Assembly (NCBI GenBank): GCA_963832025.1
Contig: CAWHSF010000003.1
Span: 79,665 to 143,664, forward strand
Origin: Candidatus Nomurabacteria bacterium
GTDB lineage: Bacteria > Patescibacteriota > Minisyncoccia > Phycocordibacterales > UBA9973
Reading direction: 5' to 3'
Length of the DNA: 64,000 bases
Positions 6,743 through 54,531 of the stretch are shown one piece after another. Made by a program: the position numbers and the translations under genes. The notes below the pieces were generated by a model. The model did not search any database. It was not told the DNA's origin and saw only the letters and a program-made list of their open reading frames with translations. Positions within the stretch are counted from its first letter, which is position 1; each line of letters begins with the position of its first letter.

Positions 6743-9586
6743 TTAATTATGAATCTCAACCGAGCCTTCTGGGTAATTATAGAGCAGAATTCCATTTAAG
6801 TTGCCGATATTATTGCCATTTATATCATCCCAGATAAAACTAGCTTCTGAGCCTAAACCTTCTGATTCACCTATGCTTGTGTCTGCACTTGCTCCTGTAC
6901 CCAAAGTACCGGAAATATTTGCATGAATTTCAAAAGTCTTGGATTGACCAGCTCCAATTCTATAATGATTACCACTACTCCAAGTTTGGTCGCACTCATT
7001 TGTTGGAGTAGTGCCTGAGCAAGAAGAAGTAAGATTTGGAAGAGCAACTCCGTTAGTATCAGTAAGATTTATGGCAGTTATATTGGCTGTACTATTTGCA
7101 CCAGCATTAAGCGACGCGACTACTGGAATTTTAGCCAAGGCGATATCACCGGAAGTGTCAGCGGTCACAGTAAGTGTTCCAAGAAAAACTCTAGTTCCAG
7201 CCGTCAGAGTTACGTTTGAAGATGCTAAGGTTATATTAGGCTTCGAACCAACAAGTGTCATGAAAGGAGAAGCAACTGAAAGATTGTTTAGATATGCAAC
7301 ACTGCTACCAGAAGTATATTTTACAGTGGTGAGAATAATAAAGGCCGAACCAGAAGGAATACCATTTGGCCCAACTGGTGCATAAGAAATGTAAGCAACA
7401 ACATCTGCACCTCCCCCACTAGCAGGAACTGGAATATTTAAACCAGTAAGATATGCAGTACCTCCGACAGCTGGAGCGGTCACTCCATTAACCGTAACTG
7501 AAGTAACATTGCCGTTAACAGTGGCACCTATACCATTCGTAGCAAATTTCAGTTCAGTGATAGTTGAGGCACTACCATTTGAAGCAAAATTAAAATCAAC
7601 CTTCGCAGCATTCTGAGCCCCTACTGTATTTCCTACCGCAATATATTGAGAAGCAGTTGAGTTGCTTGAGACTATAATTGGAGAAGAGAGAACAGAAATT
7701 GTGGTAGTCGTTCCGGAAACAACATTGAACCCATTACTTGTGCCACAAATAGTTGTGCCGGTTTCACAAACTTTAACGGTATAATAACCTACCGCAAACG
7801 AGCTTGGAATTGCCACACTATATGAGGAACCCGAAACACCAGTCGCAAGAATTGTGTTTGTCATTGATTTATCAAAGTACGAAATGTCATATTTATGTGC
7901 GCTTGTAGGACAAACACCACCAGATAAACTAACTGGACAAGCTCCAAACTGAGCTATGGGTGTGATGTCTACCCAACTGATTGTGTGTGTTGAACCTTGT
8001 GCCCATTGTGCGCTACTAGTTGAGGAAGTAATGGTAATTGCTGGAGTCGTTGGCGTTGTTGTTAAAACATTCACTGTCGCAGAAGCACTAGCTGAAACGC
8101 CAGCACTATTTGTACAAGTAACAGAATAATTAGTTGTATTAGTTAAAGTTCCGGTATTAATAGTACCGGACAAACTGTTGGCTCCATTCCAACTATTGTA
8201 ACAAGAAGTTGCATTTGTAGAATTCCAAGTCAAAGTGCTTGAACTACCGTAGGCTATACTCGTTGGATTAGCAACTAAAGTTATAGTTGGAGCTTGGGTT
8301 GTCGTTCCACTGGTTACTGTAAATGACACTGAGTTGCTTGCACCGTTTGCATTTAGCACATATATAGAATAAGTTCCCGGTAATATATTTGTTTCAAAAT
8401 TACTTGAACAGGAAGAAGATTGTACTCCGGGACAACCGCCAGTTGGAATTGTCACTGTCATTGAACTATCATTTGTCACTTGCAAAGTACCATTGTTAAA
8501 ATAATTTGGACCTAATAATTGAGCTGAGGTGGAACCAGATAACCACACACCATATTGTTCACCACCAGTTAATCCCGAAAGAGAACTAAATCCACTACCA
8601 GTTATTGTAACTTGAGTTCCAGTCGGACCTGAGGCTGGAGACAGAGAACTGATAGTCACTGAAGAGGTTGTTGTTGTTGAAACTGGTGTCGTAAATGTTA
8701 CTCCATTCAAAACATTCTTTAATGCAGTAATATCAGCATTATTTACATCCGTGATGCCATTTGACCCCACACTACCGGCAGAAACCTGATCACCAAGATA
8801 AAATTCATAACAATTTCCATTTGTATAACCTGAATAGCTGTATCTATTAAATTCTGTTCCAGCAGCAGCGCTTCCAGCGGAAGTCCAGTTAAAAGGAACC
8901 CCATCAATAGTCGTCGTACCCATACCAGGTGTGCTATTATTTTGCGGATTCAAAGCTAGACATTGAGTTGCATTTAATTGTTGGGTATTTATACTCAAAT
9001 TCAGATATGCCCCATCGAAATCTGTGCTTGGGTATGAAGTTGCAGGAATCTCTACAGTAACTAGAGAAGTTGAATTTGCTAGTTCACCAATTCCATAATC
9101 ACCCAAGGGGTTATTGCTTGTACCTAGAGCACCATTACCCAATTTTTCTGTCCAAGTATTTGGATAGTTAAAACTAACTCCATAAGTACTGTTTGAATAA
9201 GTTTGTGTTGGTGAAACTGGAGTGACTGGTACTATAGGCAAAGGATGTGTTTTGTAATATTGAGTTGCGGCGGCGGCAGTAATTTTTCCATAAATACCGT
9301 CAATCTTGCCGACAGAAAAACCGGCGTTCTCTAGCATTTGTTGAAAGGCCAAAACAGCAGCTCCCCTTGCGCCAATTTGAAATGTCGGAGCAGAAGGAGT
9401 AGTACTACTGGAATTATTTTGCGTTGTAGTAGTCGAACAAGGCTGGCCTGTCAAATAGCTAAACTTATCTCCCGGGGCACAAGCTGAAGGAGTAGTAGGA
9501 GTTGTGCTACAAAGCTGACCGGTCGTGGTGCTATATGGACCAGCACCATTACAACCTGAATCATATGCACTTACCTTTGGAGCCAA
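6743..9586 (-). CDS. large secreted surface protein: Cys-motif repeats, peptidoglycan-binding (PG_binding_1-like) domain, IPT/TIG- and Ig-like beta-sandwich repeats
   Basis: 947-aa ORF. GARGAAVLAFQQMLENAGFSVGKIDGIYG resembles PG-binding; VTISSLSPASGPTGTQVTITGSGF is IPT-like. A signal-peptide-like ATG at 9648 (MKKHIVFSFRFCFIP...) is one nt out of frame across a T-run near 9588. Confidence 0.6.
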   Translation of the reverse strand: MAPKVSAYDSGCNGAGPYSTTTGQLCSTTPTTPSACAPGDKFSYLTGQPCSTTTTQNNSSSTTPSAPTFQIGARGAAVLAFQQMLENAGFSVGKIDGIYGKITAAAATQYYKTHPLPIVPVTPVSPTQTYSNSTYGVSFNYPNTWTEKLGNGALGTSNNPLGDYGIGELANSTSLVTVEIPATSYPSTDFDGAYLNLSINTQQLNATQCLALNPQNNSTPGMGTTTIDGVPFNWTSAGSAAAGTEFNRYSYSGYTNGNCYEFYLGDQVSAGSVGSNGITDVNNADITALKNVLNGVTFTTPVSTTTTSSVTISSLSPASGPTGTQVTITGSGFSSLSGLTGGEQYGVWLSGSTSAQLLGPNYFNNGTLQVTNDSSMTVTIPTGGCPGVQSSSCSSNFETNILPGTYSIYVLNANGASNSVSFTVTSGTTTQAPTITLVANPTSIAYGSSSTLTWNSTNATSCYNSWNGANSLSGTINTGTLTNTTNYSVTCTNSAGVSASASATVNVLTTTPTTPAITITSSTSSAQWAQGSTHTISWVDITPIAQFGACPVSLSGGVCPTSAHKYDISYFDKSMTNTILATGVSGSSYSVAIPSSFAVGYYTVKVCETGTTICGTSNGFNVVSGTTTTISVLSSPIIVSSNSTASQYIAVGNTVGAQNAAKVDFNFASNGSASTITELKFATNGIGATVNGNVTSVTVNGVTAPAVGGTAYLTGLNIPVPASGGGADVVAYISYAPVGPNGIPSGSAFIILTTVKYTSGSSVAYLNNLSVASPFMTLVGSKPNITLASSNVTLTAGTRVFLGTLTVTADTSGDIALAKIPVVASLNAGANSTANITAINLTDTNGVALPNLTSSCSGTTPTNECDQTWSSGNHYRIGAGQSKTFEIHANISGTLGTGASADTSIGESEGLGSEASFIWDDINGNNIGNLNGILLYNYPEGSVEIHN

Positions 9587-12847: not shown

Positions 12848-15800
12848 CTAACTCGGAATACTCACATTGATTACGTAAGGAGAAAGGTAATCATCGTATT
12901 CATTGCCTAGAGTATCTTGGATATGAACTTTCAAACGAAACGTTCCGTTTTGTAACAGTCCCCCTTTTGACAAAATACCGTCCCAAGTCTTGGTGCAAGT
13001 ATTAGTGCCATCAACACAACCGGCTCCGGATTGAAATAATTTATAAATACTTGCATCGTCTACGTTTTCAATTTTAACAGACATCCAATTTACATTTTCA
13101 TTCGCGGACAAAAAAAGTGTTAGGTTGTTTGTTAAGGGATTAGTTGTTATATCTCCTGCGATATTGTTGAATGTATAGCTGGTGATTAAAGGTGAGGAAA
13201 CTTGAGCAGGTGGAGACGGAGGATTAGGATTTGGGGCGACTGTTACTGTTACAATATAATTTTGTGTAGAATTATCTTCCGCGGTTACTGTATAAGTGAC
13301 CGGGCTGGTAAAATTCTGAGCTGTTATATTACTCGGACTGATTGAAGCCTTATCGGAAATTGTAATCGTGGGTACCAAAGACGTCACGTCAGTTCCATAC
13401 GGAACGGTCAAAGAAATAGTGTGATTACTTTCATCGACAACACCGACAATACTTGGATTTGAGCCCAAAAAATTAAAAGAGGAAATTATTTTAGCAGAAC
13501 TAAATTGCGGAACTGATTCATTTACAATATAAACAGTTCCGTCGCCACTTTTTATGCCATTTCCGTTAGTACCACTTGCCACAGTTGTGCCTGTAAATGA
13601 TGATGTTTGATAATAAATAGCGATTCTTCCTCCGCCACCTGGACCATAACATATATACGGACAAAATAGCCCTCCACCATTCGCTTGAAAACTTCCTGCA
13701 CCACTCAAGGTATTTGTCGTTATATAAATACTTCCACCACTTGAGGTATTGGCTCCATTGGCTGAGATTGTGCCATTGTTTATAATTGAATTAGCAATAA
13801 ATCGTATGGCGCCTCCTCCTGCGGCATGAGATCCATTACCTCCGCTACCTAAATCTGTCGGCATAGTAGAAGAACCGTATGTCGATGTCGAAGTGTTTAA
13901 ATATCCTACTCCACCATAACTCGCCCCGGCATAATATGGATTAGGATTATTTGGGTCGTAAACAGCCGTAGGAGCTCCGGGTCCAGCAGCTACTCCATAA
14001 CCTTTTGCATCAGCAGAAATGAATGAACCAGAATCAACATTAATATTCTGGATTGCTAAAGAAATCGTTTGCCCCGGAATAATAGAAAGAGAAGAATTTC
14101 CAACCACACTTAAATAACTAGATGTAATTTGTTCGGTACCTGAGAGAGTTAAAGTAGAATTTCTGTTCACCATCAACGTCGGAGCATTTAGTATCTCGCC
14201 TTTTGCTAAAGTAAAAGATGAATTTTGATCAACAATAAAATTATTTTTAGCTGTGATGGTCACCCCATCTTCCGATGTAACTACGGCACCATTTGAAATA
14301 TAAATATCATTGAATAAGAATGGTGCATCTGCTTGAAGAAATTTCCACGATGAACCAGTCAAGAAAAGGTCATCTGTTGATTCATTAAAAAGACCGACGG
14401 TGCCACTTTGCCCGCAAGATTCCGTGTAGCTATCATAACTCCCACATCCTCCTTTCGCATCTATCGTTCCACTGAAATTTGAATTTTGATAATGAACAGC
14501 TATTCGTCCTCCGCCTCCGGGACTTTTGAAATAACCCGATGCCAGAAGATTGCCACCATTCGCATGCACAACACCATTTCCTGTTATGTCATCTGCATTT
14601 ATATAGATACTGCCACCACTACTTGAAGTATTTCCATCGGCAGAAATAATTCCATTGTCAGTAAGAGCACCAGAGACTGCAAGATAGATAGCTCCCCCGC
14701 CACTCGATGCGCCTCCACTTCCTAAATCCATCGGCTTGGTGGCTGAGCCATATGTCGTAGAATAAGAAACACCGCTAAAACTAAATCCACCGTAACTCGC
14801 CCCGACAGAATATTCGGAAGAGATTCCGGGTCCGCTATTTTGACCATATCCTTGTCCATTGGCAGAAATAGAAGAACCAGGATCAATAGTAATATTCTGT
14901 GCATTGATTTTTACTCCCTTGAAAGAATTTGAGGAATTTGGATCACCCTGTAATGTTAAAGTTGCATTATTGGTGATTACCAAGTCTTCATAAGTATATT
15001 CTCCTGAAACCAAAGTAGTATTTTGATCTATTGTTGTAATATCGTGTGAAGGCTGTGGATTTGTTGGTGGAGTATTAGTATCGGAACCTGAGTCCGATGG
15101 TGGATTGGTCGTCGATCCATTTTGATCTGCTGGGTTCTGGTCTGTGCCGGAAGAAGTATTTGACGAGGAATTGTCAGGAGAAGAGTCTGTGGAATTTGAA
15201 GAACTATCATCTGTCGATGATGTATTTTGTGCTGATTGGGGATTTCCTGTTGTTGTTCCAGTAATTGTTCCAGGATTATCTTCCGGAATAGACGTCGTAA
15301 TTTCTCCTCCACCTCCTTTGCCGATAAATGAAGGAAAAGAAGAAACAGGCGGAGCTAATGAGATAATATTTCCGGTGGAAGTATCCTGAAGTGCGGGAGG
15401 TTGTTCGGCTGATGGAGAATTTACTGTTGTATCATTTGTAGTAGGGCTACTCGGCGGCGTCATTTGATTAAGCGCATTTATCGCGTCCCCACTATCATTA
15501 ACCGCTAAATTATTTATATCGTTTGCAGCCGGAGCAAAAAAAGAAGAAACGGAAGAAATTGCCGAACCGGTAATATTTGCAGTTGTATTGCCTACAGCAA
15601 CAGCAACACTACTCACACCATTGGCTACATAAACGAGAGCATCTTGTGCTGTAATTGTCACAGGGTCGAGAATAGACAAAACAGTACCTTGAATTTTCTG
15701 CGCTAGGGTTAATTTCGGGGGGTTGATACAAAGAGAATTTTCATCTTGAATATTATTATTTTTTAATTTATTTAAAGAAGTTTTTATATCAGACACAATT

Positions 15801-16489
15801 CGGTCACCCTCATAGTTTAAATAAATTTTTAAAAAATCGTGTCCCATTCCACCATCGTCGCTACTTTTAAAATCTATATGCACATTGGGTTTTAAAATAT
15901 TTGTAAAAGGTGCCTTAGCTACGGCCCCAGCAATTACATTATCTGTATCGGAAGTTAAATACAAACCATCTCCAGCCACATGAGTGGCTGGAGATGCCAG
16001 ACTATAAACACCAATAGACTCACTCGGAACGCCACCGGACATATCAGCAACAGCATCATAGAAAGTGTTAGCATAGAAATTTCCCTGTGAATGCCCAACA
16101 AGTAAAAGTTTTTGCGTAGCCACTTTAGTACTTGCATCCGTAAGCATTTGAGCAAAATCTGAATCCTGCACATCAAACGAATTTTGGTCGAAATATTTTT
16201 GCAAAACAGAATCCAAAGAATCGATAATCACACCGTGAGTCGGATTGAGAACATAATCAACGATAAGTGGTTGGTTGTTGTAAGTTGTATTATTAAGTTT
16301 CCTCGCAAGAGCAATCGAATTGTCTCTTGCTCCTGCATCATATGTTAATACGCCATTTACTGTTAATATTGTATATCCGCTTTTTGAACATTGATTGTAT
16401 GCTAGAGACAATTTTGGAATAAAAAATAAAACAAGAAACATTAAACAACTAATAACTTTGCCATATTTTTTTATTAAATTATTTATCAT
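12848..16489 (-). CDS. 1213-aa secreted protein: signal peptide, lipase-like alpha/beta-hydrolase domain, low-complexity linker, duplicated Gly-rich beta-helix module, Ig-like domains
   Basis: Nucleophile-elbow LLLVGHSQGNFY. S/T/N/P-rich stretch. Two paralogous ~150-aa modules (GYG..SGPG...ASYGG...DLGSGG...GGGAI...SSGGSIYI...GGGGRIA..YQ). Stop abuts the repeat at 12846. Confidence 0.6.
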   Translation of the reverse strand: MINNLIKKYGKVISCLMFLVLFFIPKLSLAYNQCSKSGYTILTVNGVLTYDAGARDNSIALARKLNNTTYNNQPLIVDYVLNPTHGVIIDSLDSVLQKYFDQNSFDVQDSDFAQMLTDASTKVATQKLLLVGHSQGNFYANTFYDAVADMSGGVPSESIGVYSLASPATHVAGDGLYLTSDTDNVIAGAVAKAPFTNILKPNVHIDFKSSDDGGMGHDFLKIYLNYEGDRIVSDIKTSLNKLKNNNIQDENSLCINPPKLTLAQKIQGTVLSILDPVTITAQDALVYVANGVSSVAVAVGNTTANITGSAISSVSSFFAPAANDINNLAVNDSGDAINALNQMTPPSSPTTNDTTVNSPSAEQPPALQDTSTGNIISLAPPVSSFPSFIGKGGGGEITTSIPEDNPGTITGTTTGNPQSAQNTSSTDDSSSNSTDSSPDNSSSNTSSGTDQNPADQNGSTTNPPSDSGSDTNTPPTNPQPSHDITTIDQNTTLVSGEYTYEDLVITNNATLTLQGDPNSSNSFKGVKINAQNITIDPGSSISANGQGYGQNSGPGISSEYSVGASYGGFSFSGVSYSTTYGSATKPMDLGSGGASSGGGAIYLAVSGALTDNGIISADGNTSSSGGSIYINADDITGNGVVHANGGNLLASGYFKSPGGGGRIAVHYQNSNFSGTIDAKGGCGSYDSYTESCGQSGTVGLFNESTDDLFLTGSSWKFLQADAPFLFNDIYISNGAVVTSEDGVTITAKNNFIVDQNSSFTLAKGEILNAPTLMVNRNSTLTLSGTEQITSSYLSVVGNSSLSIIPGQTISLAIQNINVDSGSFISADAKGYGVAAGPGAPTAVYDPNNPNPYYAGASYGGVGYLNTSTSTYGSSTMPTDLGSGGNGSHAAGGGAIRFIANSIINNGTISANGANTSSGGSIYITTNTLSGAGSFQANGGGLFCPYICYGPGGGGRIAIYYQTSSFTGTTVASGTNGNGIKSGDGTVYIVNESVPQFSSAKIISSFNFLGSNPSIVGVVDESNHTISLTVPYGTDVTSLVPTITISDKASISPSNITAQNFTSPVTYTVTAEDNSTQNYIVTVTVAPNPNPPSPPAQVSSPLITSYTFNNIAGDITTNPLTNNLTLFLSANENVNWMSVKIENVDDASIYKLFQSGAGCVDGTNTCTKTWDGILSKGGLLQNGTFRLKVHIQDTLGNEYDDYLSPYVINVSIPS

Positions 16490-41146: not shown

Positions 41147-41578
41147 TTATATTAATTTATCTTTATATAACGCTAATTCTTTTAGTGTTTGAGAGTGGAG
41201 TGGCTGAGGTAAGTTGTCTAATGTAAACCACCCAATTTCATCAAATTTATGCGGTTCGCCGTTTTTTATTTCTTTTGGTTCAACCAGCACTGAAAAATGA
41301 AATTGTATCCAGTGAACCTTTTTCCCATTTTGCTCCCGAAAATTATCGTTGAACCCAATAAAAGAATATTGTATGTTCAGGGCACAATACTCTTCCTTTA
41401 CTTCTTTGCGAAGAGTTTCTTCGACTGTGTCGCCAAAATCTATTCCACCTCCACCAAAATCCCAACAACCATGTTCGTCGCGACAATTTATTCCTCGCTT
41501 GTTCATTACATAATTTCCTTTGCCGTCATGGCAATAGTACGAAACCCCAACTCCGATGTAATCAATCCCTTTTTCCAT
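41147..41578 (-). CDS. NUDIX hydrolase
   Basis: Nudix box GGGGIDFGDTVEETLRKEVKEEYC. Confidence 0.8.
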   Translation of the reverse strand: MEKGIDYIGVGVSYYCHDGKGNYVMNKRGINCRDEHGCWDFGGGGIDFGDTVEETLRKEVKEEYCALNIQYSFIGFNDNFREQNGKKVHWIQFHFSVLVEPKEIKNGEPHKFDEIGWFTLDNLPQPLHSQTLKELALYKDKLI

Positions 41579-41579
41579 C

Positions 41580-42896
41580 TTAGATTTTTTCCTTGATATA
41601 ATTTTTTAAATCGGATACTTTTACCCTCTCTTGTTTGCCTGTGTCACGGTCGCGAACAGTCACGGTGTCGTCGGTAAGTGTGTCAAAGTCAATTACGATG
41701 CAAAATGGTGTACCAATTTCATCCTGACGGCGATAGCGTTTGCCGATATTGCCATTGTCATCCCAAGCAACTCTTCCGAATTCTGCTTTGAGTAGAGCGT
41801 AAACTTTTGTTTTAGCATATTCCACGAGTTCTGGTTTATTTTTTAAAAGCGGAGATACTGCGCAAATAACCGGCGCAATACTCGGTTTAAATTTTAAATA
41901 GGAACGAATTTCGTTTTCTTTCTTCGTCTTCCGTATATGCAGACAAAAGCAAAACAAGCACGGTGCGATCCACACCAAAAGTCGGTTCTATCACGTGCGG
42001 AACCATTTTTTCGGAGTTTTCTTCGTCAATATATTCGAGTTTGTGTTGTTTTAAATCAAAATCCGTACGATAGGCAAGTCCAAAAAGTTCTTTTCTGCCG
42101 AAAGGAAAATCAAATTCAAAATCAACTGTGCGGCTAGAGTAATGCGCCCTATCTTCTTTCGCCACCTCAAGCTCGTGGACCTTACTCATATCTATACCTA
42201 CTTCTTCCATCCAATCCAGCATCTCCCCTTTCCAGTATTCAAAATATTTCTCCCAATCGGTCGGGCGAATAAAATACTCAATTTCCATTTGCTCAAATTC
42301 TCGAGCGCGAAAAATGAAAATCTCGCGGAGTAATTTCATTTCGAAAAGCTTTGCCGATTTGCGCCATGCCAAAAGGAAGCTTCGGATGAAAAGCATCCAC
42401 AGTATTTTTAAAATTCACAAACATCCCTTGCGCGGTTTCTGGACGCAGATAAGAAGTCGCACTGGAATCATCGGAGTGCGCCGACTTTTGTCTGAAACAT
42501 CATGTTAAATTGTCTGGCTTCACCTAATTTTCCGCCACAATTTGGACATTTGATTTTATCTTTTTCTATTTGGTCTGCGCGAAATTTCGAATGACATTTT
42601 TCACACTCCACCATAGGGTCAGCGAAGCCAGCCACGTGACCGGACGCTTGCCAGACTTCTTGACGCATCAAAATTGCCGCATCCACGCCATACATATCCA
42701 TCCTGCTATCGACAAATTTTTTCCACCAATTTTGTTTAATATTATTTTTGAGAGCCACACCGAAATGCCCCCAATCAAAAGTGCCTCCGAGCCCTCCGTA
42801 AATTTCCGAACCTTGAAAAATAAATCCTCGCCTCTTGCAAAGCGAAACTATTTTTTCCATCAAATCATTTTTATCTCTTTTTTCTTCTTCTGCCAT
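41580..42896 (-). CDS. glyQS: glycine--tRNA ligase (dimeric GlyQS type), 3 apparent frameshifts
   Basis: [13 protein letters not shown]; [23 protein letters not shown] readable only in a shifted frame near 42400-42465; [14 protein letters not shown]; C-terminal anticodon-binding block. Breaks near 42465, 42320, 41925. Confidence 0.85.
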
Positions 42897-44906: not shown

Positions 44907-45488
44907 TTAGAGATGTGTCTCTTTTAGAGCCTTGTTTATTTGACGCAATACTTCCATTCTGGATTTAGAAATTTCAAATATTAATTCTTGCTCAAATGGA
45001 GATTTGATAAGGTTTTGCAAAGTTTCGTCTCCTCCGATATATCCGAGGTTGTTTAAAATACGCAAAACTAAAACTGCTTCAATGTTTCGTAAGTCTTCCT
45101 TATTTTCTATTTTTTCTAGAACAGATAAACCATTTATTAAATCAATAAATAAAGTTTCATTGGGTTCAACTCCGGCAAGTAATCTTTTTAATAAATTTGC
45201 GATATTATAAAACACCTGAAAAGTTTCTCGATTTTTAGAGAGTGCTTCAAGCCTATTTGTTTTTGATGCGCTGGTCACTCGCCAAAAATCACGCCCTTGA
45301 ACTAGATCAATTTTTACGTAAGCAAAATCTTGCAAAATAAAACGTAATTTTGAAGACATTTTGCGCACACCTTGCGCCGAAGCATAAATCATTCCGAGTT
45401 CACGAGTGAAAATGGAATAATATTTTCCCGTTTCGCCGAAATTTTTACTTCCCAATATTAAACCTTCTGTGTGATAAATATGGTGCAT
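44907..45488 (-). CDS. recO: DNA repair protein RecO (short)
   Basis: N-terminal OB pattern HTEGLILGSKNFGETGKYYSIFTRELGMIYASAQGVRK. Confidence 0.75.
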   Translation of the reverse strand: MHHIYHTEGLILGSKNFGETGKYYSIFTRELGMIYASAQGVRKMSSKLRFILQDFAYVKIDLVQGRDFWRVTSASKTNRLEALSKNRETFQVFYNIANLLKRLLAGVEPNETLFIDLINGLSVLEKIENKEDLRNIEAVLVLRILNNLGYIGGDETLQNLIKSPFEQELIFEISKSRMEVLRQINKALKETHL

Positions 45489-46132
45489 TAAAATTCTTCT
45501 TCTTTTCTATCTTCAAAATTTTTAAAATCAATATTAAATAGCGATAAAGATAAATGACATATTCTGTGAGTGAGATCAATGCCAGATTGATTCAGCATTC
45601 CATCGTGCACAGGAAAACAAACTTGTGGCTTTACTTCTAAGGCATATTTTATTGCATCTTTTATTTTAGCCCAGGGACCAGCGACCGGCAATGCCAGAAT
45701 TTCTATTTTTTTCTTTGGATTATAAAAGGCGTCTCCGGGATAAAATAATCTTTTATCAATAATATAGCCGGTGTTTAGTACCTGTCCGTAATCTTGAAAA
45801 ATCTCTTCATGTTTGCAATCATGAGCTTCAATATCTATCCCGAGAATTTCTTTTGAAATTTTGTTTTCTAAGACTTCATATTTTATACTTTCAACATCGA
45901 GTAACTTCCCAACGCCGTCATTCGTAATTATTTTTACATCTGGATTATTCGCTAAAATTTCTTTTAGTGAATCAATGTGAAAATGATCTCCGTGTTCATG
46001 AGTTATTAAAATTAAATCAATATTTTTTTCTTTTGATTGTTCGTCAACAGCATAAGACCCCGGATCAGTCATTATTCTCTTCCCATTTGTTTCTATCACT
46101 AAACAACAATGCCCTAGTTTTTTGATTTTCAT
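45488..46132 (-). CDS. MBL-fold metallo-hydrolase
   Basis: ILITHEHGDHFH motif. Confidence 0.75.
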   Translation of the reverse strand: MKIKKLGHCCLVIETNGKRIMTDPGSYAVDEQSKEKNIDLILITHEHGDHFHIDSLKEILANNPDVKIITNDGVGKLLDVESIKYEVLENKISKEILGIDIEAHDCKHEEIFQDYGQVLNTGYIIDKRLFYPGDAFYNPKKKIEILALPVAGPWAKIKDAIKYALEVKPQVCFPVHDGMLNQSGIDLTHRICHLSLSLFNIDFKNFEDRKEEEF

Positions 46133-46134
46133 AG

Positions 46135-49100
46135 TTATATTTTCTCAATCTTTACCTTGAAAAGCAAATCGTCGATTTTGATTTCTTCGCCATCTGTCGG
46201 TCCATCTGGGCCAACTTTTATTTCGCGAGCATTCAAAGCCTTCATTAATGATTTTTCATCACTTTTTATTAAATTCTCACCAGCAGGACCAGTCGCACCA
46301 CTAATAATAATGATATCACTTGGTATAAGATTTTTTTCTTTCCTTATATCTTGAAGTGCACGTATAAATTCACGACGATTTCCTTCTAATTTAAGTTCTG
46401 GCGTCATATTTGTGTTTAATGTATAAAATCCTGTACCTGTATAATTTTTTACATTTATTTCTTCTTTGATAATTTCAGCATAACTACCTAAGACTGCTGG
46501 TCCCGTCGCTTCAGAGAGAACTTGTCGAACTGGAATATTTTTTTGCTGTCTTTCTTTGAGCAAAATGGAAACACTATCCCTTGCTTGCGCCATTTTTTCA
46601 ATCGCTTCTCTATCAACTTTCTCCGCTTTAGGCCAATTTTCTAAATGCACGCTTTCTTTATTTTTTTCATTTTTTAATTTCAACCAGATGTCTTCTGCAG
46701 AAAATGGAGCAAATGGAGCCATAACTTTTGCCAGAGTTTTTAACACAAAGTATAGAGTTTGCTTCGCCTCTTTGTCTCCTTCTTTAATTCTTTCTCGAGA
46801 GCGCCGTAAATACCAGGTGGATAGGTCTCCAACAAAATCACGAATCGCACGTGTGGGTTCAAGTAATTTATACTCATTTAAATTATCAGTAGAAAGTTTT
46901 ACTAATTCATTCAATCTAGCCAAAATCCACTGGTCTAGAATATTTGACTTCTCCCCCGACCCCTCTCCAAAAAGTTTTTTGGAGAGGGGTGAAGGGGTGA
47001 GGTGGGTTTCTTCTAAACTTTTATCTCGATAAAGTTCGTAAAATGCCAAAACATTGTAAAGTAATCCAAAAACTTGCTGGTGTAAAAGAGAAACAGTTTT
47101 CTCATCGAAGTTTTTAGATTCTCCCGGCTGATTGACGGAATACATCCACAAACGAAGCGTATCCACGCCATATTTATCCATTGCACTCCACGGATCCACA
47201 ATATTGCCGAGTGATTTGGACATTTTCTTGCCTTTGGCATCAAGCAGGTGCCCAAGACAAATCACGTTTTTATAGGCCAATCCCCGCCCCATCAAAACTC
47301 CAACGGCGTGTAAGGTATAAAACCATCCTCTGGTCTGATCTATCGCTTCAGAAATAAAATCTGCCGGATATCCCGCTCCATCCACCCATTTTTTGTTTTC
47401 AAAGGGGTAATGGTCTTGCGCAAAGGGCATGGCGCCAGAATCGAGCCAAACATCCATGACTTCTTTGGTGCGTACAAGATTTCCTCCGCATTCACAAACA
47501 AGCTTTACTTCGTCAATGTATGGCCGATGCAAATCAAGCTCATAATTTTCGTTGTGAGGAATTGGGATAAAATCTATCTTGTGAAGTTCTGCAGTTTTGT
47601 CGTGACATTCTTTATCAAAAATTTCTTCTGAGCGTTTTTTATTTGCTCCTTCGACAACGGCTGGAGCAACTTCGAGTGAAAAACCATGAGATACAATTAG
47701 AATATTTTCATTTTTATACTTTTCTTCGAGTTCATATAAAAACTTTCCGATTCGATTCTTGGCATCTTGGAAGCTTTCACCTTCTGGATTTTTTACATCA
47801 AAATCCCAACCATTTTCTGTCATGTAGTTGTTGTATTCACTACCGTGTTTGCCAGAAAAATTTCCAAATCCGAATTCACGAAGTTCATCTCGAAAAATTA
47901 TTTCATCTTTAGGGAAGCCTATCTTGTCAGAAATAATTTCAGCTGTTTCTTTGGTCCGAAGAAGTGGTGAAGCAAAAATCATTGCTATTTTTTTGCTGGA
48001 AAGTTCTTTCGCGTGCTTTTCTGTTTCCAAGCGCCCTTTGACAGTAAGAGGATAGACGCCCAATTCATCTGAATAAATATTTATTACATTGTTTTCTGCT
48101 TCGCCATGTCGCATGACAAAATATTTATTGCCAGATTTCTTGGTTTTTTGCTTCAGTTCTTCCACACTCCCGACAACTTCAAGCTTTTTACATTTTTCAC
48201 AAGCCCAAACCGGAAGCGGAGTGCCCCAGTATCGTTCGCGTGAGATTGCCCAATCTTTTATCTCGCGAAGCCATTCGCCAAAACGCCCATCGCGGATATG
48301 TGAAGGTTCCCAATTTATTTTTTTATTCTCGGCAATCATTTTTTCCTTGATTTTCGGATCGGAAACTTTGATATACCAAGAATCTCGTGCGTAATAAATA
48401 AGCGCGGTGTGGCAACGCCAACAATGCGGATAGGAGTGTTCATATTTTTCTTTTTTAAACAAAAGTCCGCGGTGCGCCAAATCTTTGATGACATCCACCG
48501 CCACTTCTTCGTCGCGAACAAATCTGCCTTCAAATATTCCGGTCCCTGCCAAAAATTTTCCATCCAGGCCAACCAAATGATGTTTTGGCAAACCAACCTT
48601 TGTTCCCAACACAAAATCATCTTGTCCATACATCACTGCCGTATGCACCACGCCGGTACCGTCTTCGGTCGTGACAAAATCTGCCGGATAAACTTTGTAA
48701 GCCTTTTCCATTTTATGCTTCTCGGTTTCAAAAATCGTGTTTGAGAGAAATGGGTAAAGCGGTTCGTATTCCAGGCCAATCAAATCTTTGCCTTTCATTT
48801 CTTCTATAATTTCATATTCGCCTTCAACTATAGAAAGTCGTGCCTTGGCTAAAATTAAAATTTCATTTCCAACTTTAATTTTTACGTAATCAAGTTTTTC
48901 TCCCACAGCCAGCGCCACATTGCCCGGCAGAGTCCAAGGAGTTGTCGTCCATGCGAGAACATAGGTGTCGTCAGTCGCCGCAGAAGAATTCTTCGGCATT
49001 ACTCCACCCTCTGGGCGGAACCTTCCGCCTTCAGAATTCTTCTGCGGCGACGCGACGACTTTAAATTTTACGGTCACCGACAAATCTTTCACATCTTCAT

Positions 49101-49695
49101 ATCCTTGCGCAAGTTCGTGCGAAGAAAGAGAAGTTCCGCATCTTGGGCACCAAGGCACAACTTTATAATCTTTATAAAGTAATTTCTGTTCATTTATTTT
49201 TTTTACAATATTCCAGACCGATTCAATGTAGCTATTATGATAAGTGACATATGCGTTTTTTTGGTCTACCCAATATCCAATACGCTTAGTAAATTTATTC
49301 CAAACTTCCAGATATTCCCAGACAGATTCTTTACATTCTTGGTTGAATTTCGCAATACCGTATTCTTCAATTCCCTTTTTTGAATTCAAGCCAAGTTTTT
49401 TCTCCACCTGAAGCTCTACCGGCAACCCTTGCGTATCCCATCCACCTTTTCTACGCACATGAAAACCCTGCATCGTTTTATATCGCGGAATCACATCCTT
49501 AAATGCTCGCGCTTCTAAATGGTGTATTCCTGGCTTGCCATTTGCTGTTGGCGGACCTTCGTAAAAAATAAATTCTTTTTCCCCTTCCGTTTGCTTTAGA
49601 GATTTATCGAAAATTTTATTCTCTTTCCAAAATTCCAAAATGCGTTCCTCGCGCAAAGCAGTCTCACTTTTTTTGTTTTCTAGATTTTCAGCCAT
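46135..49695 (-). CDS. ileS: isoleucine--tRNA ligase with an inserted histidine-phosphatase domain and two palindromic-element inserts
   Basis: PTANGKPGIHH, editing-domain WTTTPWTLPGN, KMSKSLGN, Zn-type CxxC pairs. 1186 aa. Confidence 0.9.
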   Translation of the reverse strand: MAENLENKKSETALREERILEFWKENKIFDKSLKQTEGEKEFIFYEGPPTANGKPGIHHLEARAFKDVIPRYKTMQGFHVRRKGGWDTQGLPVELQVEKKLGLNSKKGIEEYGIAKFNQECKESVWEYLEVWNKFTKRIGYWVDQKNAYVTYHNSYIESVWNIVKKINEQKLLYKDYKVVPWCPRCGTSLSSHELAQGYEDVKDLSVTVKFKVVASPQKNSEGGRFRPEGGVMPKNSSAATDDTYVLAWTTTPWTLPGNVALAVGEKLDYVKIKVGNEILILAKARLSIVEGEYEIIEEMKGKDLIGLEYEPLYPFLSNTIFETEKHKMEKAYKVYPADFVTTEDGTGVVHTAVMYGQDDFVLGTKVGLPKHHLVGLDGKFLAGTGIFEGRFVRDEEVAVDVIKDLAHRGLLFKKEKYEHSYPHCWRCHTALIYYARDSWYIKVSDPKIKEKMIAENKKINWEPSHIRDGRFGEWLREIKDWAISRERYWGTPLPVWACEKCKKLEVVGSVEELKQKTKKSGNKYFVMRHGEAENNVINIYSDELGVYPLTVKGRLETEKHAKELSSKKIAMIFASPLLRTKETAEIISDKIGFPKDEIIFRDELREFGFGNFSGKHGSEYNNYMTENGWDFDVKNPEGESFQDAKNRIGKFLYELEEKYKNENILIVSHGFSLEVAPAVVEGANKKRSEEIFDKECHDKTAELHKIDFIPIPHNENYELDLHRPYIDEVKLVCECGGNLVRTKEVMDVWLDSGAMPFAQDHYPFENKKWVDGAGYPADFISEAIDQTRGWFYTLHAVGVLMGRGLAYKNVICLGHLLDAKGKKMSKSLGNIVDPWSAMDKYGVDTLRLWMYSVNQPGESKNFDEKTVSLLHQQVFGLLYNVLAFYELYRDKSLEETHLTPSPLSKKLFGEGSGEKSNILDQWILARLNELVKLSTDNLNEYKLLEPTRAIRDFVGDLSTWYLRRSRERIKEGDKEAKQTLYFVLKTLAKVMAPFAPFSAEDIWLKLKNEKNKESVHLENWPKAEKVDREAIEKMAQARDSVSILLKERQQKNIPVRQVLSEATGPAVLGSYAEIIKEEINVKNYTGTGFYTLNTNMTPELKLEGNRREFIRALQDIRKEKNLIPSDIIIISGATGPAGENLIKSDEKSLMKALNAREIKVGPDGPTDGEEIKIDDLLFKVKIEKI
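46949..47006. repeat. GC-rich palindrome cccctctccaaaaa-gt-tttttggagagggg with flanks, inside ileS
   Basis: Family of 39821-39870. Encodes ...LTPSPLSKKLFGEGSGEKS... Confidence 0.8.
48974..49051. repeat. 78-nt palindromic element with perfect 19-bp termini inside ileS (GTCGCC...GGCGAC family)
   Basis: gtcgccgcagaagaattct (48974-48992) / agaattcttctgcggcgac (49033-49051). Inner hairpin ggcggaa-cc-ttccgcc. Exactly 26 codons. Confidence 0.9.
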
Positions 49696-49727: not shown

Positions 49728-51391
49728 TTACATCTTTCTTGGAGCCTCTATGCCCAGGAGATGTAAGCCATTTTTCATCACAAAAGAAAACGCATAAGTC
49801 AGAGCTACTTTGTATGGAGAAGTTTCGTCTGCTTTATTTACGATTACATTGTTCCCATAAAAACTATTGAAGGAGCGAGCGACTTCGATTAAATAGTTTG
49901 CAATATGATGCGGTTCGTATGCAGATACAGAACGAGCGACAACTTCTGGAAACTTATACAACATTTTTTCTACTTCAAAAATTTCATTTGGAACATTTTC
50001 AAAATCTGGAATAATATTTTCCTTTTGCGCTTTTTCTAAAACAGAATTTGCTCGAGTGTAAGAATACTGCAAGTATGGACCGGAGTCTCCTTCAAAAGAA
50101 ATAGATTTTTCAAAATCATAAATTATATCTCCGCCAATTCCCTGTTTTAATATTGAATACTTGATTGCAGACACCGCCACCGCAGAAACAATACTTTCTC
50201 TTTCTTCTTCGGAAAATTCTCGGTCGCTCATTTTTTGAAATACTGCTTCTCGTGCATCAGCAATCAATGATTCTCCAGTAACTGCATTCCCTTTTCTAGA
50301 GCCCATCTTGCCAGTAGTTAACCTCATCATGCCGTGCGTGATGTGTTTCATTCTATTTTCGAATTCTGGATAAATTAGAGAAAGGGCTTTTGCCACTACG
50401 CGCATATAGTCCGCTTGTTCGTTTGCCGTAATGACAATAGACAAATCCATGTTTGGTTCAGTTTTAAACTTTTCTTCACTCAAACCGAGTTCTTTTGTCT
50501 CATAAGTCGGCAAGCCCGCAGATGTGATAAAAACTCTTGTATGCAGTTTCGGATCATGTTTTTCGGCTTTAAAGACAACTGCTCCATCAGATTCCTCAAA
50601 AACTTTACCCATGTTATCCTGAACAATGTCTCGGCCGATATCTGCCATCGCGCTTTCTAAAAAGTAATAATCAAATTTTGTGCCAAGCATCTTATATAAG
50701 TCTTCAAAAGCTTCCATCGTCACTTTAAAACCCCAGTCATAAACTTGATTTACTTCTTCGTCTTCTCTCTTGTAAATTCTTTGGTTCAAAATATCAATTT
50801 CTTTTTTGGCTTCAGGGTCTTCCTCGTAGGCTTTACACCTAACACATAAGAGTCTCCAATATATTGCGCGAGAATGGCAACAGGGGCATCCATATCTTTC
50901 GGCATCCCCTTTTTCTGCATACCATAAAACGCTTTGGCCACATGAAGTCCAACATCTCCTTGATAATTTGCACGCGCGACATCTGCCCCAGCGTGTTCTA
51001 AAATTCTGGCGATGGATTCGCCGATGGCGTTTGTCATCAAGTGACCGATATGAAAAGGTTTGAAAGGGTTCGGGTCGGTATATTCAACCATGAATTTTTT
51101 TCCTTTCATGAGATTGTTTTTCCCGACATCTGCCCCTTTACCCAAAATTTCTTCAATACTTTTACTAAAAAATTCGCGAGAAAGATGGAAATTTATAAAC
51201 CTGTCAATTACTTCTATCTTTCCTATCTCAGATATCTTATGTGTGTCTAGTTTTTTGAAATATTCTTCCGCGTTTTCGGAGGTTGAGATAAAAGTATAAT
51301 CGCCATTCTTTATGTCTTTGGGATGCACCAAAACAAAATCTCCTTCGATTTTCAAAATTTCTTTTATCCAATTTTTTATTTTGTCTTCCAT
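49728..51391 (-). CDS. argS: arginine--tRNA ligase (one apparent frameshift near 50800)
   Basis: PFHIGHLMTNAIGE (HIGH) and a DALR-type C-terminus. Restoring one A in gtaaa(a)gcc joins ...LGVKAYEEDPEAKKEIDILNQRIY... Confidence 0.88.
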
Positions 51392-51825: not shown

Positions 51826-52507
51826 TTGATAATTTTTTTAACTTTTTCATAAATCATTTCGTGAATTTGCTCACGAGACAGCATTTCTCCATTTTTCGAA
51901 CATTCTATTTTTATAAAATGTTTCAAAAGCTTTGAAAGCCAAACTGCACTCTTGATGGAATTTTTCTTGAACTCCAAATCGACTTCGTGTACATCTTTTT
52001 TGTTGCCTGAATATTTGCGAACAGAAGTTTTGTTTCTTTTTTTAATTAAAACCTCCACTAGCGAAAGTGGCAAGGAAAGATAAAAAGTAATGTCGGGACG
52101 AGGAATTTTAAAAACATCATATTCCAGTTCATCCAGCCACTTGATAAAACTGCACGCTTTTTAGCATTCGCAATTTTCCCGCCTTGGTGAATCTGATTTG
52201 CAGAAACATATCTATCCAGCACAACCATATAACCTGCTTTTAAATATTTTTTTATTTCTTCCGAGGATTCCCATCTATCGGCAGCGTAAAGAACCGAAAC
52301 TATTTTGGGGTGAACGTTTATGAAATTATAATATTGCTCGGTTAAACAATGCCCGATAAATCCTCCGATAAAATTTTCGTAATGAGGAAAATGAATTGTT
52401 TTTACTTTATAGCCATCTTTTTTAAGCTTCTTTGATAAAAGATTTATTTGCGTGGTTTTTCCGCTTCCATCCGTGCCGTCTATTACAATAAGTTTGCCTT
52501 TTACCAT
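51822..52507 (-). CDS. tmk: thymidylate kinase (one apparent frameshift near 52160)
   Basis: P-loop IDGTDGSGKTT, LDRYV. The second half (FIKWLDELEYDVFKIPRPDITFYL...) is in another frame across a T-run. Confidence 0.85.
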
Positions 52508-53326: not shown

Positions 53327-54531
53327 TTAATTTCTTTGTGAACTTTGTTCTTTTATTTTTTTATTATCTTTATTTTTGAGCGTCATAATCATGAGCTCTG
53401 CCACACGTTTACACTCTTTCTCTTTAAATCCACGCGTCGTAATTGCCGGTGTGCCAAAACGAATACCGGAAGGATCCATCGGCTTGCGGACATCGCCCGC
53501 AATTGAATTCATGTTTAAAGTAATTCCAACTTCGTCGAGCACTGTCTGCGCTTCTTTGCCGGTCACCCCCAAAGAACCAAAAACATCAGCTAAAATAAGG
53601 TGATTTTCAGTTCCGCCGCCAATCATCCGAATTTTATTCTTCTTAAATACTTCTGCCATTGCTTTAGCATTTTTCAAAATTTGCTTTGCATATTTTTTAT
53701 ATTTTGGCGTCATCGCTTCTCCAAAAGCCACAGCTTTGGCAGCAATCGTGTGCATATGTGGACCACCTTGAATTCCTGGGAAAATCGATTTATCAATTTT
53801 TTTTGCAATCTCTTCGCTTTCACGAGTAAGAATTATTCCTCCGCGCGGACCACGAAGTGTTTTGTGTGTAGTGGAAGTGATAATATCAAAACCATCATCA
53901 AACGGATTGCGAAGAACTCCGGCTGCAATCAGACCTGCAATGTGTGCCATGTCTGCCATGGTGACAGCTCCTACTTCATGCGCAATATCTGCGAATTTTT
54001 TATAATTCAAAGTTTTTGGATACGCAGAAAATCCAGCCAAAATTATTTTTGGTTTATGTTCTTTAGCAAGTCGGCGAAGATTTCATCATAATCAATTTCT
54101 CCCGTATCAGGATCTTTCATTTTATATCCGATAAATTTATATATTTTGGCAGGCAGGGTGAGAGGATGTCCATGGGTAAGATGTCCGCCATGGGACAAAT
54201 CCATGCCGAGTACTGTGTCCCCTGGTTCCAAGAGTGCAGCATAAACAGCTAAATTTGCGGGTGCGCCGGAATGCGGTTGAACATTGGCATATTTGCATTT
54301 AAATAATTTACAAACACGTTCAATTGCAAGCTTTCGACTTGATCGGTCCAGTCTTGTCCCCCATAATAACGACTGCCCAGGATACCCTTCGGAATATTTA
54401 TTTGTGAAAACAGAACCATTAGCTTTTAATACATCTTCTGAGACATAGTTCTCGGAAGGGATGAGTTCTAATCCTTCCGCTTGTCTCTTTTCCTCACCTT
54501 TTATTAACTTTTCAATTAGTTTGTCATGCAT
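53327..54531 (-). CDS. glyA: serine hydroxymethyltransferase (one apparent frameshift near 54050)
   Basis: SENYVSEDVL, GGHLTHGH, TTHKTLRGPRGG. TAGTAT lies 6 nt upstream of the ATG. Confidence 0.9.

Follow-up and report, generated by a model that had tools for sequence, protein, structure and literature searches.

A histidine-phosphatase domain embedded in the isoleucyl-tRNA synthetase of Patescibacteria

The ileS gene of a 64,000-nucleotide (nt) stretch of DNA from a Candidatus Nomurabacteria bacterium (contig CAWHSF010000003.1; the whole stretch is hereafter "the window") encodes a full isoleucyl-tRNA synthetase (IleRS) that carries a complete branch-1 histidine-phosphatase domain of ~190 amino acids (aa), inserted in frame at the tip of connective peptide 3 (CP3), with its own catalytic residues intact. 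Judged from public genome sequences, hundreds of Patescibacteria species have kept this architecture. Few enzymes are as conserved as the aminoacyl-tRNA synthetases, whose known additional domains function in editing, in tRNA binding or, among eukaryotes, in signalling. The long persistence of another, unrelated catalytic centre within the Rossmann fold across a large uncultured radiation would point either to an unrecognised need of aminoacylation in ultra-small cells, such as by-product removal, repair or defence, or to a novel way of building multifunctional proteins.

The host protein is a complete type-2 isoleucyl-tRNA synthetase

The open reading frame (ORF) of ileS is uninterrupted over 1186 aa, as the initial annotation of this DNA had read it, and its product scores 861.9 bits against the NCBIfam model TIGR00392 (cutoff, 621.4 bits). 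Pfam identifies tRNA-synt_1, Anticodon_1 and a C-terminal DUF5915, and the catalytic, CP1 editing, anticodon-binding and C-terminal DUF5915 domains of a type-2 IleRS are all present. The nearest solved structure is that of Thermus thermophilus IleRS (1ILE; E = 1.3e-228), with P. megaterium IleRS2 (8C8W) at E = 1.9e-228. Both class I signature motifs are found (Table 1), KMSKS in its usual form and the HIGH position as a G/AXHH variant, GIHH, where some relatives at the same locus have the canonical HYGH type. The G/AXHH variant is documented in functional IleRS2, and GXHH is tied to mupirocin hyper-resistance in type-2 IleRS (PMC10485003). The two halves of the CP3 zinc knuckle, CxxC and CxC, occur in near-equal numbers of the sequences aligned, 44 and 45 of 81, respectively. 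The 64-kb window, in which no systematic search was made for another ileS, showed none, and we infer that the product of this gene charges tRNA-Ile.

Two short, low-complexity segments of the window IleRS, SPQKNSEGGRFRPEGGVMPKNSSAATDD (aa ~215-243; nt ~48967-49053) and LTPSPLSKKLFGEGSGEKSN (aa ~899-918; nt ~46942-47001), correspond to gaps in the alignment with T. thermophilus IleRS. We considered NF040702, the family of IleRS with an N-acetyltransferase domain, as a possible home for the protein and rejected it: the match reaches 303.9 bits against a cutoff of 1999 and covers the N-terminal synthetase part only, and Pfam finds no GNAT domain in the window IleRS.

The insert lies at the tip of CP3

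In the alignment with 1ILE, aa 16-520 of the window protein correspond to 1ILE residues 14-482 and aa 720-1032 to residues 488-798, such that 199 residues in the window stand against five (residues 483-487) in T. thermophilus IleRS. Comparison with insert-free close relatives narrows the core inserted piece to about aa 523-711 (nt 47563-48129), placed between ..KKSG and LP.NE..ELDLHRP. At the insertion point these relatives read ...GS.xELKxKSGGxLPxNEKxELDLHRPYID... (the loop in one of them, L094, is KSGGSLPVNEKNELDLHRP), and the window reads ...KKSGN, followed by the domain (KYF...His_Phos...F.P) and then by IPHNENYELDLHRPYID... This is a clean in-frame insertion of ~188 aa. The initial annotation, which had counted ~190 intervening residues, had placed the domain at 47542-48170; its start coordinate misses the reading frame by one base and should be 48171. 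It had also taken the flanking blocks to lie normally a few tens of residues apart, which is too much, the ordinary spacing at this point being ~10-13 residues.

Within the Rossmann-fold catalytic domain, the insertion point comes after the WxISRxRYWGxPxP block and before the DVWxDSG/KMSKS half, and in the 1ILE alignment the insert separates the CxxC and CxC halves of the zinc knuckle. Both the fold and the zinc content of CP3 vary among IleRS structures (PMC7191050), and the insert therefore occupies the tip of a peripheral subdomain whose structure is plastic. Conservation of the linker PxPHNxNYE is high in our 81-sequence alignment. GC content is 0.34-0.37 in the insert and 0.44-0.47 in its flanks; we considered horizontal acquisition on this ground and rejected the argument, because the C-terminal domain, too, is lower in GC, which makes the difference uninformative.

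The insert has the catalytic residues and fold of a histidine phosphatase

The initial annotation had read the insertion in the IleRS catalytic core as a PGAM-like histidine-phosphatase domain, to be checked with the Pfam profile His_Phos_1 (PF00300). This profile matches aa 526-685 (nt 47641-48120, minus strand) with E = 3.8e-30 (105.5 bits) in the whole protein and E = 1.3e-31 (110.2 bits) for the excised segment; with a gathering cutoff of 21.7 bits, the domain belongs to branch 1. Together with the completeness of the IleRS and the presence of all catalytic residues (R529-H530-G531, R580, E607 and H670, the full superfamily set), this match bears the proposal out. The motif positions given at the outset, RHG at aa 529-531, LIVSHG with H670 and SPLLRTKETAE with R580, are likewise correct (Table 1). 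The roles assigned to R529, H530, R580, E607 and H670 are those established for the superfamily. In the 81-sequence alignment E640 and R648 are also invariant, N536 is kept in 78 sequences, and G671 is glutamate in 27. The motif NKYFVMRH was part of the pattern used in our genome scan, such that the invariance of R529, H530 and G531 there is partly selected; R580, E607 and H670 lie outside every search pattern. Pairwise identity is ~45% in the phosphatase domain and 58-59% in the catalytic core, and near-invariant catalytic residues are not what would be expected of a degenerate scaffold that is otherwise ~45% identical. We predict that the domain is an active phosphatase that works through phosphohistidine chemistry.

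Whether the segment folds independently, a point raised by the initial annotation, was addressed with an AlphaFold (AF2) model of aa 495-745 built from a 29-sequence alignment, which is a confident folding unit (pLDDT 93.6, pTM 0.89); a single-sequence AlphaFold model of the full 1186 aa (pLDDT 31.7) was not used. Foldseek with the AF2 model returned 288 PDB matches at E <= 0.001, and all 50 matches listed are histidine phosphatases or mutases. The best are ~200-aa small-molecule phosphatases: PspA, PhoE, CobC, a riboflavin-pathway histidine phosphatase, TIGAR and Rv2419c. The model thus shows the alpha/beta fold of the superfamily, and the cap region typical of small-molecule members is retained. 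The domain has a net charge of -8.9 in the window, and the medians are -4.9 for charge and 5.8 for pI. Several named families were tried and rejected: PspA (NF045917; 66-71 bits against a cutoff of 350), CobC (TIGR03162, 71-75 against 163; NF011580, 60-64 against 250), GpmB (NF002901; 47-52 against 261) and SixA (TIGR00249; 38.6 against 74.5). Since every NCBIfam equivalog cutoff is missed, including those for cofactor-dependent phosphoglycerate mutase (dPGM; see Discussion), no substrate can be assigned by homology.

The architecture is widespread among Patescibacteria

Our genome scan used one genome per species and yielded 313 matching stretches in species-representative genomes, the best 80 of which were examined, with ORFs extracted by tblastn anchoring. 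All 80 come from metagenome-assembled genomes of Patescibacteria (Nomura-, Zambryski-, Campbell-, Wolfe- and Tagabacteria, Paceibacterota, or Saccharibacteria, the last probably mislabelled). In 80/80 the insert lies within one stop-to-stop ORF, generally of ~1100-1390 codons (L047 and L069 are shorter, and others are cut by a contig end), and both insert junctions are conserved across the 80 assemblies. A search with the IleRS core alone showed that, of the 120 nearest type-A IleRS (type A is defined below), 113 have a PF00300 match and seven, which are 68-70% identical, are insert-free; it also found a public protein (P0304) identical over all 1186 aa, on a contig of 430,556 bp. An assembly artefact joining two genes, which the initial annotation had named as a way in which its reading could fail, is ruled out by the 80 loci and this identical protein, and the survey of IleRS that it suggested thus found the same insertion to be common. 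In a library of representatives at 50% identity, 60 proteins match at E <= 1e-30, and among the matches listed of at least 300 aa, 105 of 106 have a class I synthetase core (IleRS, apart from two ValRS).

Automatic annotation detects both domains, as in the JGI product name 'isoleucyl-tRNA synthetase/phosphohistidine phosphatase SixA/...'. At NCBI most of the named insert-bearing proteins are called 'class I tRNA ligase family protein', and the one named insert-free relative is 'isoleucine--tRNA ligase'; the insert apparently breaks automatic naming. The initial annotation had been aware of no aminoacyl-tRNA synthetase with an embedded phosphatase domain. Indeed, the literature that we searched holds no description of a phosphatase inside a tRNA synthetase and no publication on phosphatase-bearing IleRS, but the sequences are public and automatically annotated, the architecture is widespread among them, and NCBI curates an IleRS family bearing a GNAT domain.

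A neighbouring phosphatase gene is the probable source of the insert

The gene order in the window is dUTPase - argS - ileS (with the His_Phos insert) - MBL-fold hydrolase - recO, and among the 80 loci argS lies upstream in at least 48 and recO downstream in 64. The nearest free-standing homologues of the insert are proteins of 180-194 aa that are 35-46% identical to it (BLASTP), with alignments that run from about residue 5 (NKYF) almost to their C-terminus. Wherever the DNA was usable, the gene for the free-standing homologue lies directly downstream of argS. The order argS-hisPhos-ileS stands on four independent contigs (L086, L087/88, L089 and L103), with spacers of 1-30 nt, and in L103 the ileS beside the free-standing phosphatase gene is complete and insert-free, with 978 codons and an unbroken tRNA-synt_1 match. 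A second His_Phos is absent from all 80 insert-bearing loci and from the rest of the window. A free-standing homologue between argS and ileS, together with the lack of a second copy where the insert is present, strongly suggests that a whole neighbouring gene of ~185 aa moved into ileS, which is the simplest reading.

Some insert-free loci have a different phosphatase next to ileS. A HAD_2 gene encoding 203-204 aa follows ileS in three of the five readable insert-free loci, 3 nt away in L091 and L093 and past a 47-codon ORF in L090; L091 and L092 are grouped as one locus in this set. The same adjacency is seen in five of 81 insert-bearing loci (L007, L012, L047, L049 and L076), a difference with a Fisher p of 0.005 in a small sample in which L091 and L093 are close relatives. 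No HAD phosphatase gene follows ileS in the window (44907..46132). We considered strict mutual exclusion of the insert and an adjacent HAD gene and rejected it in favour of enrichment only, since two of the five insert-free loci lack the HAD gene and five insert-bearing loci have it. L090 and L095 also have a neighbouring gene for a MazG-like NTP pyrophosphohydrolase.

Related phosphatases occur at other sites and in other hosts

A second search used as its query P0096, a two-domain protein of 1419 aa that occurs on six contigs, one of which measures 1.06 Mb. Of the 120 matches listed, ~107 carry PF00300, and those with a named source belong to Gracilibacteria, Peregrinibacteria or Peribacteria, bar the two weakest. 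Across the 384 proteins collected, His_Phos domains fall at three sites in IleRS: 253 at site 1, which is the CP3 tip and the position of the window insert; 22 at site 1b, between DxWFxSG and KMSKS; and 64 at site 2, past KMSKS and ahead of the anticodon-binding domain. As many as three copies occur in a single IleRS. The R and H of the RHG motif and E607 are kept at all three sites, as are R580 (250/253, 22/22 and 64/64 at sites 1, 1b and 2, respectively) and H670 (252/253, 22/22 and 64/64). The nearest neighbour of a domain belongs to the same site for 19 of 22 at site 1b and 62 of 64 at site 2, while site-1 domains and free-standing proteins intermix; since the domains cluster by site, the insertions at the three sites are probably independent.

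The same position can hold an unrelated phosphatase, and the same phosphatase subfamily can have another host. In the IleRS P0249 a HAD_2 domain, with weak NCBIfam matches to phosphoglycolate phosphatase, PpaX pyrophosphatase and YjjG nucleotidase, is embedded at site 1b, where relatives have His_Phos. Members of the His_Phos subfamily are inserted in ValRS, after DTWFSSG in P0423 (1140 aa) and as four tandem copies in P0064 (P0174 is a further ValRS of this kind), and fused to the C-terminus of TsaC/Sua5, threonylcarbamoyl-AMP synthase, in P0134 (junction ESGNKYFLMRHA).

Other domains are found in frame in IleRS of Patescibacteria: GNAT (NCBIfam NF040702), an AAA_33/AAA_18 P-loop kinase whose weak best match is Ser-tRNA(Sec) kinase, HAD_2, an alpha/beta-hydrolase, an HD domain inside DUF5915, a DUF559 endonuclease-like domain, and a Y1 transposase-like domain inside the CP1 region (P0189, P0265, P0271, P0249, P0250, P0201, P0340 and P0239, from Gracilibacteria, Peregrinibacteria and Paceibacteria). 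The IleRS of Patescibacteria is apparently an insertion hot spot.

The insert is shared by genes with catalytic cores of two types

The 80 loci hold two types of IleRS2 core. Type A (n = 49, including the window) has GPPTANGKPGIHH, which contains the GXHH signature, WAISRERYWGTPLP and DVWFDSG; type B (n = 29) has GPPFATGxPHYGH, WxISRNRYWASPLP and DCWFESG. Core identity is 0.73-0.76 within A and 0.60-0.64 within B, against 0.47 (maximum 0.58) between them, whereas insert identity is 0.45 within A, 0.47 within B and 0.44 between A and B, with A-B pairs reaching 0.77. Sliding windows along L003 (A) and L020 (B), which both keep argS upstream and recO downstream, give identities of 0.23-0.56 in the core, against 0.72-0.83 both for the insert and for part of the C-terminal domain, and an independent pairwise alignment confirmed this mosaic. 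The pairs L003/L020, L012/L022 and L001/L005 are all mosaic ileS genes of this kind, with cores (aa ~1-500 and ~740-900) of two clades, and with the insert and part of the C-terminal domain 70-83% identical.

We had anticipated that insert and IleRS core would evolve together, but rejected this because the correlation was near zero; the two core types and the mosaic gene account for this, rather than noise. The pattern implies either an in-place exchange of cores between the two IleRS2 clades, in which the insert and C-terminal domain stayed behind, or transfer of the cassette into a new core at exactly the same position. In either case the insert is retained under selection. Because GXHH is tied to mupirocin hyper-resistance (PMC10485003), the core swaps may reflect inhibitor pressure on IleRS. 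Core swapping may also distort IleRS-based phylogenies of Patescibacteria.

Other genes of the window

Several genes of the window are broken. The argS gene directly upstream of ileS is split by a 1-nt frameshift near 50825-50835, at 'gtaaagcc', with the +2 frame continuing as AYEEDPEAKKEIDILNQRIYK; in the relatives checked, its halves are in the same frame wherever both were found, and argS is therefore probably a single ORF there. The SHMT gene lies in two frames (54043-54531 and 53327-54040), the thymidylate kinase gene (52058-52507) is truncated to 149 aa that cover profile positions 1-99 of 185, and a class II aminoacyl-tRNA synthetase gene (41147-42896) is in several pieces. These breaks suggest indel errors of the assembly or gene decay; ileS itself is intact. 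Two further, very large ORFs in the window are 12848-16489 (1213 aa, with a DUF5018 match) and 6743-9586 (947 aa, with a weak peptidoglycan-binding match).

Table 1. Positions in the window of ileS, its motifs and insert, and its neighbouring genes.
Feature	Position (nt)	Strand	Basis or conservation
ileS, complete type-2 (Thermus-like) IleRS with insert, 1186 aa	46135..49695	-	uninterrupted ORF and profile scores
Class I HIGH position, non-canonical GIHH (GXHH variant), aa 56-59	49519..49530	-	motif reading
CxxC (C499, C502), first half of CP3 zinc knuckle	48190..48201	-	aligns with 1ILE Cys461/Cys464
Inserted segment, aa 521-719, 199 aa	47539..48135	-	measured against T. thermophilus IleRS
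RHG motif: R529, H530 (predicted phospho-accepting His), G531	48103..48111	-	R and H 81/81, G 80/81
R580, second phosphate-binding Arg (SPLLRTKET)	47956..47958	-	81/81
E607, predicted proton donor	47875..47877	-	80/81, one Asp
H670, second catalytic His (VSHG)	47686..47688	-	81/81
CxC (C734, C736), second half of CP3 zinc knuckle	47488..47496	-	aligns with 1ILE Cys502/Cys504
KMSKS signature loop, aa 824-828	47212..47226	-	~105 residues past insert
argS, directly upstream of ileS, split by 1-nt frameshift	49728..51391	-	two ORFs
MBL-fold hydrolase, downstream of ileS	45488..46132	-	conserved synteny
recO, downstream of ileS	44907..45488	-	conserved synteny

Discussion

A non-homologous HAD phosphatase takes the place of the insert both within the gene and beside ileS; the subfamily occurs at three sites in IleRS and in ValRS and TsaC as further hosts; and the insert is retained through swaps of the catalytic core. 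Together these strongly suggest that selection acts on a phosphatase activity that is coupled, physically or genetically, to the synthetase, and the combination of gene adjacency and fusion points to a phosphatase selected as the partner of the synthetase. The best overall explanation, which in our judgement falls a little short of an even chance of being right, is that a free-standing gene between argS and ileS was captured inside ileS, that its coupling to the synthetase is under selection, and that the domain hydrolyses a small phosphorylated compound at adenylate-forming sites.

IleRS, ValRS and TsaC share the reaction of a substrate with ATP to give an acyl-adenylate and pyrophosphate (PPi). 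This common chemistry leads us to guess that the module clears a by-product: it may be an autonomous phosphohydrolase for a small phosphorylated compound made or used at adenylate-forming sites. PPi would be the leading candidate, since its hydrolysis would pull the reaction of amino acid and ATP to aminoacyl-AMP and PPi forward; a nucleotide by-product such as AMP would be the second.

Several observations weigh against this explanation. The idea that PPi is the substrate is a weak guess, built solely on the chemistry common to the three hosts and on a weak PpaX-like match of the HAD domain, and the literature searched yielded no case of inorganic pyrophosphatase activity among branch-1 histidine phosphatases. 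An adjacent HAD gene is not peculiar to insert-free loci, and the numbers behind it are small, with kin among them. The TsaC fusion is known from one 3.7-kb contig, and the ValRS cases come from few clusters. GNAT, DUF559 and Y1 transposase-like inserts in IleRS are unfit for by-product clearance. The locus is also rich in nucleotide-housekeeping genes (SHMT, NUDIX, Tmk, dUTPase and MazG-like), and the phosphatase could belong to nucleotide metabolism and be near ileS through synteny alone.

A bolder version, which we consider possible though doubtful, is that the class Ia synthetases IleRS and ValRS, together with TsaC, serve in Patescibacteria as platforms for in-line accessory enzymes, with the phosphatase as a dedicated partner of adenylation, either a built-in pyrophosphatase or nucleotidase, by which amino-acid activation would be driven onward where metabolism is minimal, or a phosphatase that repairs tRNA ends or the enzyme. 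If true, this would add a new functional class of synthetase domain beside the editing and tRNA-binding modules and would make the exchange of whole cores around a retained insert a case of modular recombination inside an essential gene. The insert-free relatives and the free-standing homologues provide natural controls for function.

The main rival explanation, which we judge rather unlikely, is that the domain is a housekeeping small-molecule phosphatase (a nucleotidase for salvage, or a phosphoserine or sugar-phosphate phosphatase) that was trapped in a tolerant surface loop. It would work apart from aminoacylation and would have been kept because it is hard to excise precisely and is conveniently co-expressed with an essential gene. 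Its free-standing gene directly adjoins ileS, the neighbourhood is full of the nucleotide-housekeeping genes listed above, its structural neighbours are all metabolite phosphatases, the domain is acidic, and CP3 is structurally plastic; the unrelated inserts of IleRS (GNAT, DUF559, Y1_Tnp and HD) suggest a scaffold that is generally permissive. A chance capture of this kind would not readily account for the presence of one subfamily at three sites, probably reached independently, with as many as three copies in one IleRS and four in one ValRS, for its recurrence in ValRS and TsaC, or for its replacement by a HAD phosphatase in the gene and beside it. Nor would it account for the retention of the insert at an identical position through replacement of the catalytic core, and the highly conserved PxPHNxNYE linker suggests fixed docking rather than a loose tether.

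Less probable again, in our view quite improbable, is a protective role, in which the phosphatase would act on tRNA (a 2'/3'-phosphate or pyrophosphate blocking the CCA end), on the synthetase itself (marks left by toxin kinases near the KMSKS loop) or on a phosphorylated inhibitor of IleRS, as one of several protective modules in an enzyme that is often attacked. Each of the three sites of insertion adjoins the KMSKS half of the catalytic domain, and the companion inserts elsewhere include GNAT, the P-loop kinase with its weak match to Ser-tRNA(Sec) kinase, HD and alpha/beta-hydrolase domains. The window enzyme has the GXHH signature that is linked to mupirocin hyper-resistance, and switching between GXHH and HXGH cores suggests inhibitor pressure. 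SixA, PGAM5 and Sts-1 are histidine phosphatases that act on proteins. However, the cap is of the small-molecule type and the domain is more like PspA, PhoE and CobC than SixA, whose cutoff it misses; its negative charge is unfavourable for RNA binding, although this is weak evidence; no toxin, kinase or inhibitor is known in the context of these inserts; and the fusion to TsaC is at odds with a role specific to KMSKS or to IleRS.

We regard it as very improbable that the domain is a dPGM, that is, a glycolytic enzyme fused to IleRS. Its best NCBIfam match is indeed the archaeal-type dPGM, at 86-89 bits, and S. pombe PGM is among the best PDB sequence matches, but the cutoff of that model (NF038349) is 225 bits, and the matches to NF002339 (45-50 against 316) and TIGR01258 (26 against 82) also fall short. 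The dPGM consensus after the catalytic Glu and His is E-R-H-Y-G and H-G-N-S-L-R; the window reads E607-FGFG and H670-GFSL, G671 is often glutamate among relatives, and the C-terminal tail is missing, the Pfam match stopping at position 162 of 194. Because these diagnostic residues are absent, we class the domain as a phosphatase-type member and not a phosphoglycerate mutase. Equally far from likely is a non-catalytic structural or regulatory module, or an artefact of assembly or gene calling: the frameshifted genes of the window (argS, SHMT, Tmk and the class II synthetase) hint at assembly errors or a decaying genome, but the same architecture and junctions recur in 80/80 independent assemblies, an identical public protein exists, and the catalytic residues are essentially invariant.

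We therefore return to a neighbour-derived phosphatase whose coupling to the synthetase is selected, and ask how it compares with known systems. The phosphoserine phosphatase PspA (4IJ5/4IJ6), PhoE/YhfR (1H2E), the alpha-ribazole phosphatase CobC (6E4B, 6NRU) and the riboflavin-pathway histidine phosphatase (9MMH) share with the insert their fold, their size of ~190-210 aa and the R-H-G...R...E...H set (Foldseek E ~1e-12, target-normalised TM 0.7-0.78; sequence E 1e-10 to 1e-11). They are only 22-26% identical to it and are free-standing, whereas the insert is threaded through a loop of another enzyme, such that its N- and C-termini must be close together. Branch-1 histidine phosphatases do share a chain with another catalytic domain in the RNase H/acid phosphatase of the Rv2228c type (NF005567) and in 6-phosphofructo-2-kinase/fructose-2,6-bisphosphatase. 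Those are end-to-end fusions; in the window the domain is inserted internally and its partner is a tRNA synthetase. The window domain scores 77-81 bits against the NF005567 cutoff of 326, and RNase H-His_Phos relatives are among the distant matches (L110 and L114).

As for the host, the CP1 editing domain, the CP2 and CP3 subdomains and the leucine-specific domain of LeuRS are likewise modules set in connective-peptide loops that leave the Rossmann-fold synthetase intact, and NF040702 shows that an IleRS with an enzyme domain inside it is already a curated family. The present insert differs from the accessory domains of class Ia synthetases in that it appears to be a complete, unrelated enzyme with an active site and predicted phosphoryl-transfer chemistry of its own, rather than an editing, tRNA-binding or GNAT domain. 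Some eukaryotes have a fusion of ATP sulfurylase, APS kinase and pyrophosphatase, in which a hydrolase for a by-product is tethered to an enzyme that makes an adenylate and PPi. By analogy, the embedded domain of IleRS could be a tethered hydrolase of this kind, from another hydrolase family and in another host, if its hypothetical role as a pyrophosphatase is correct.

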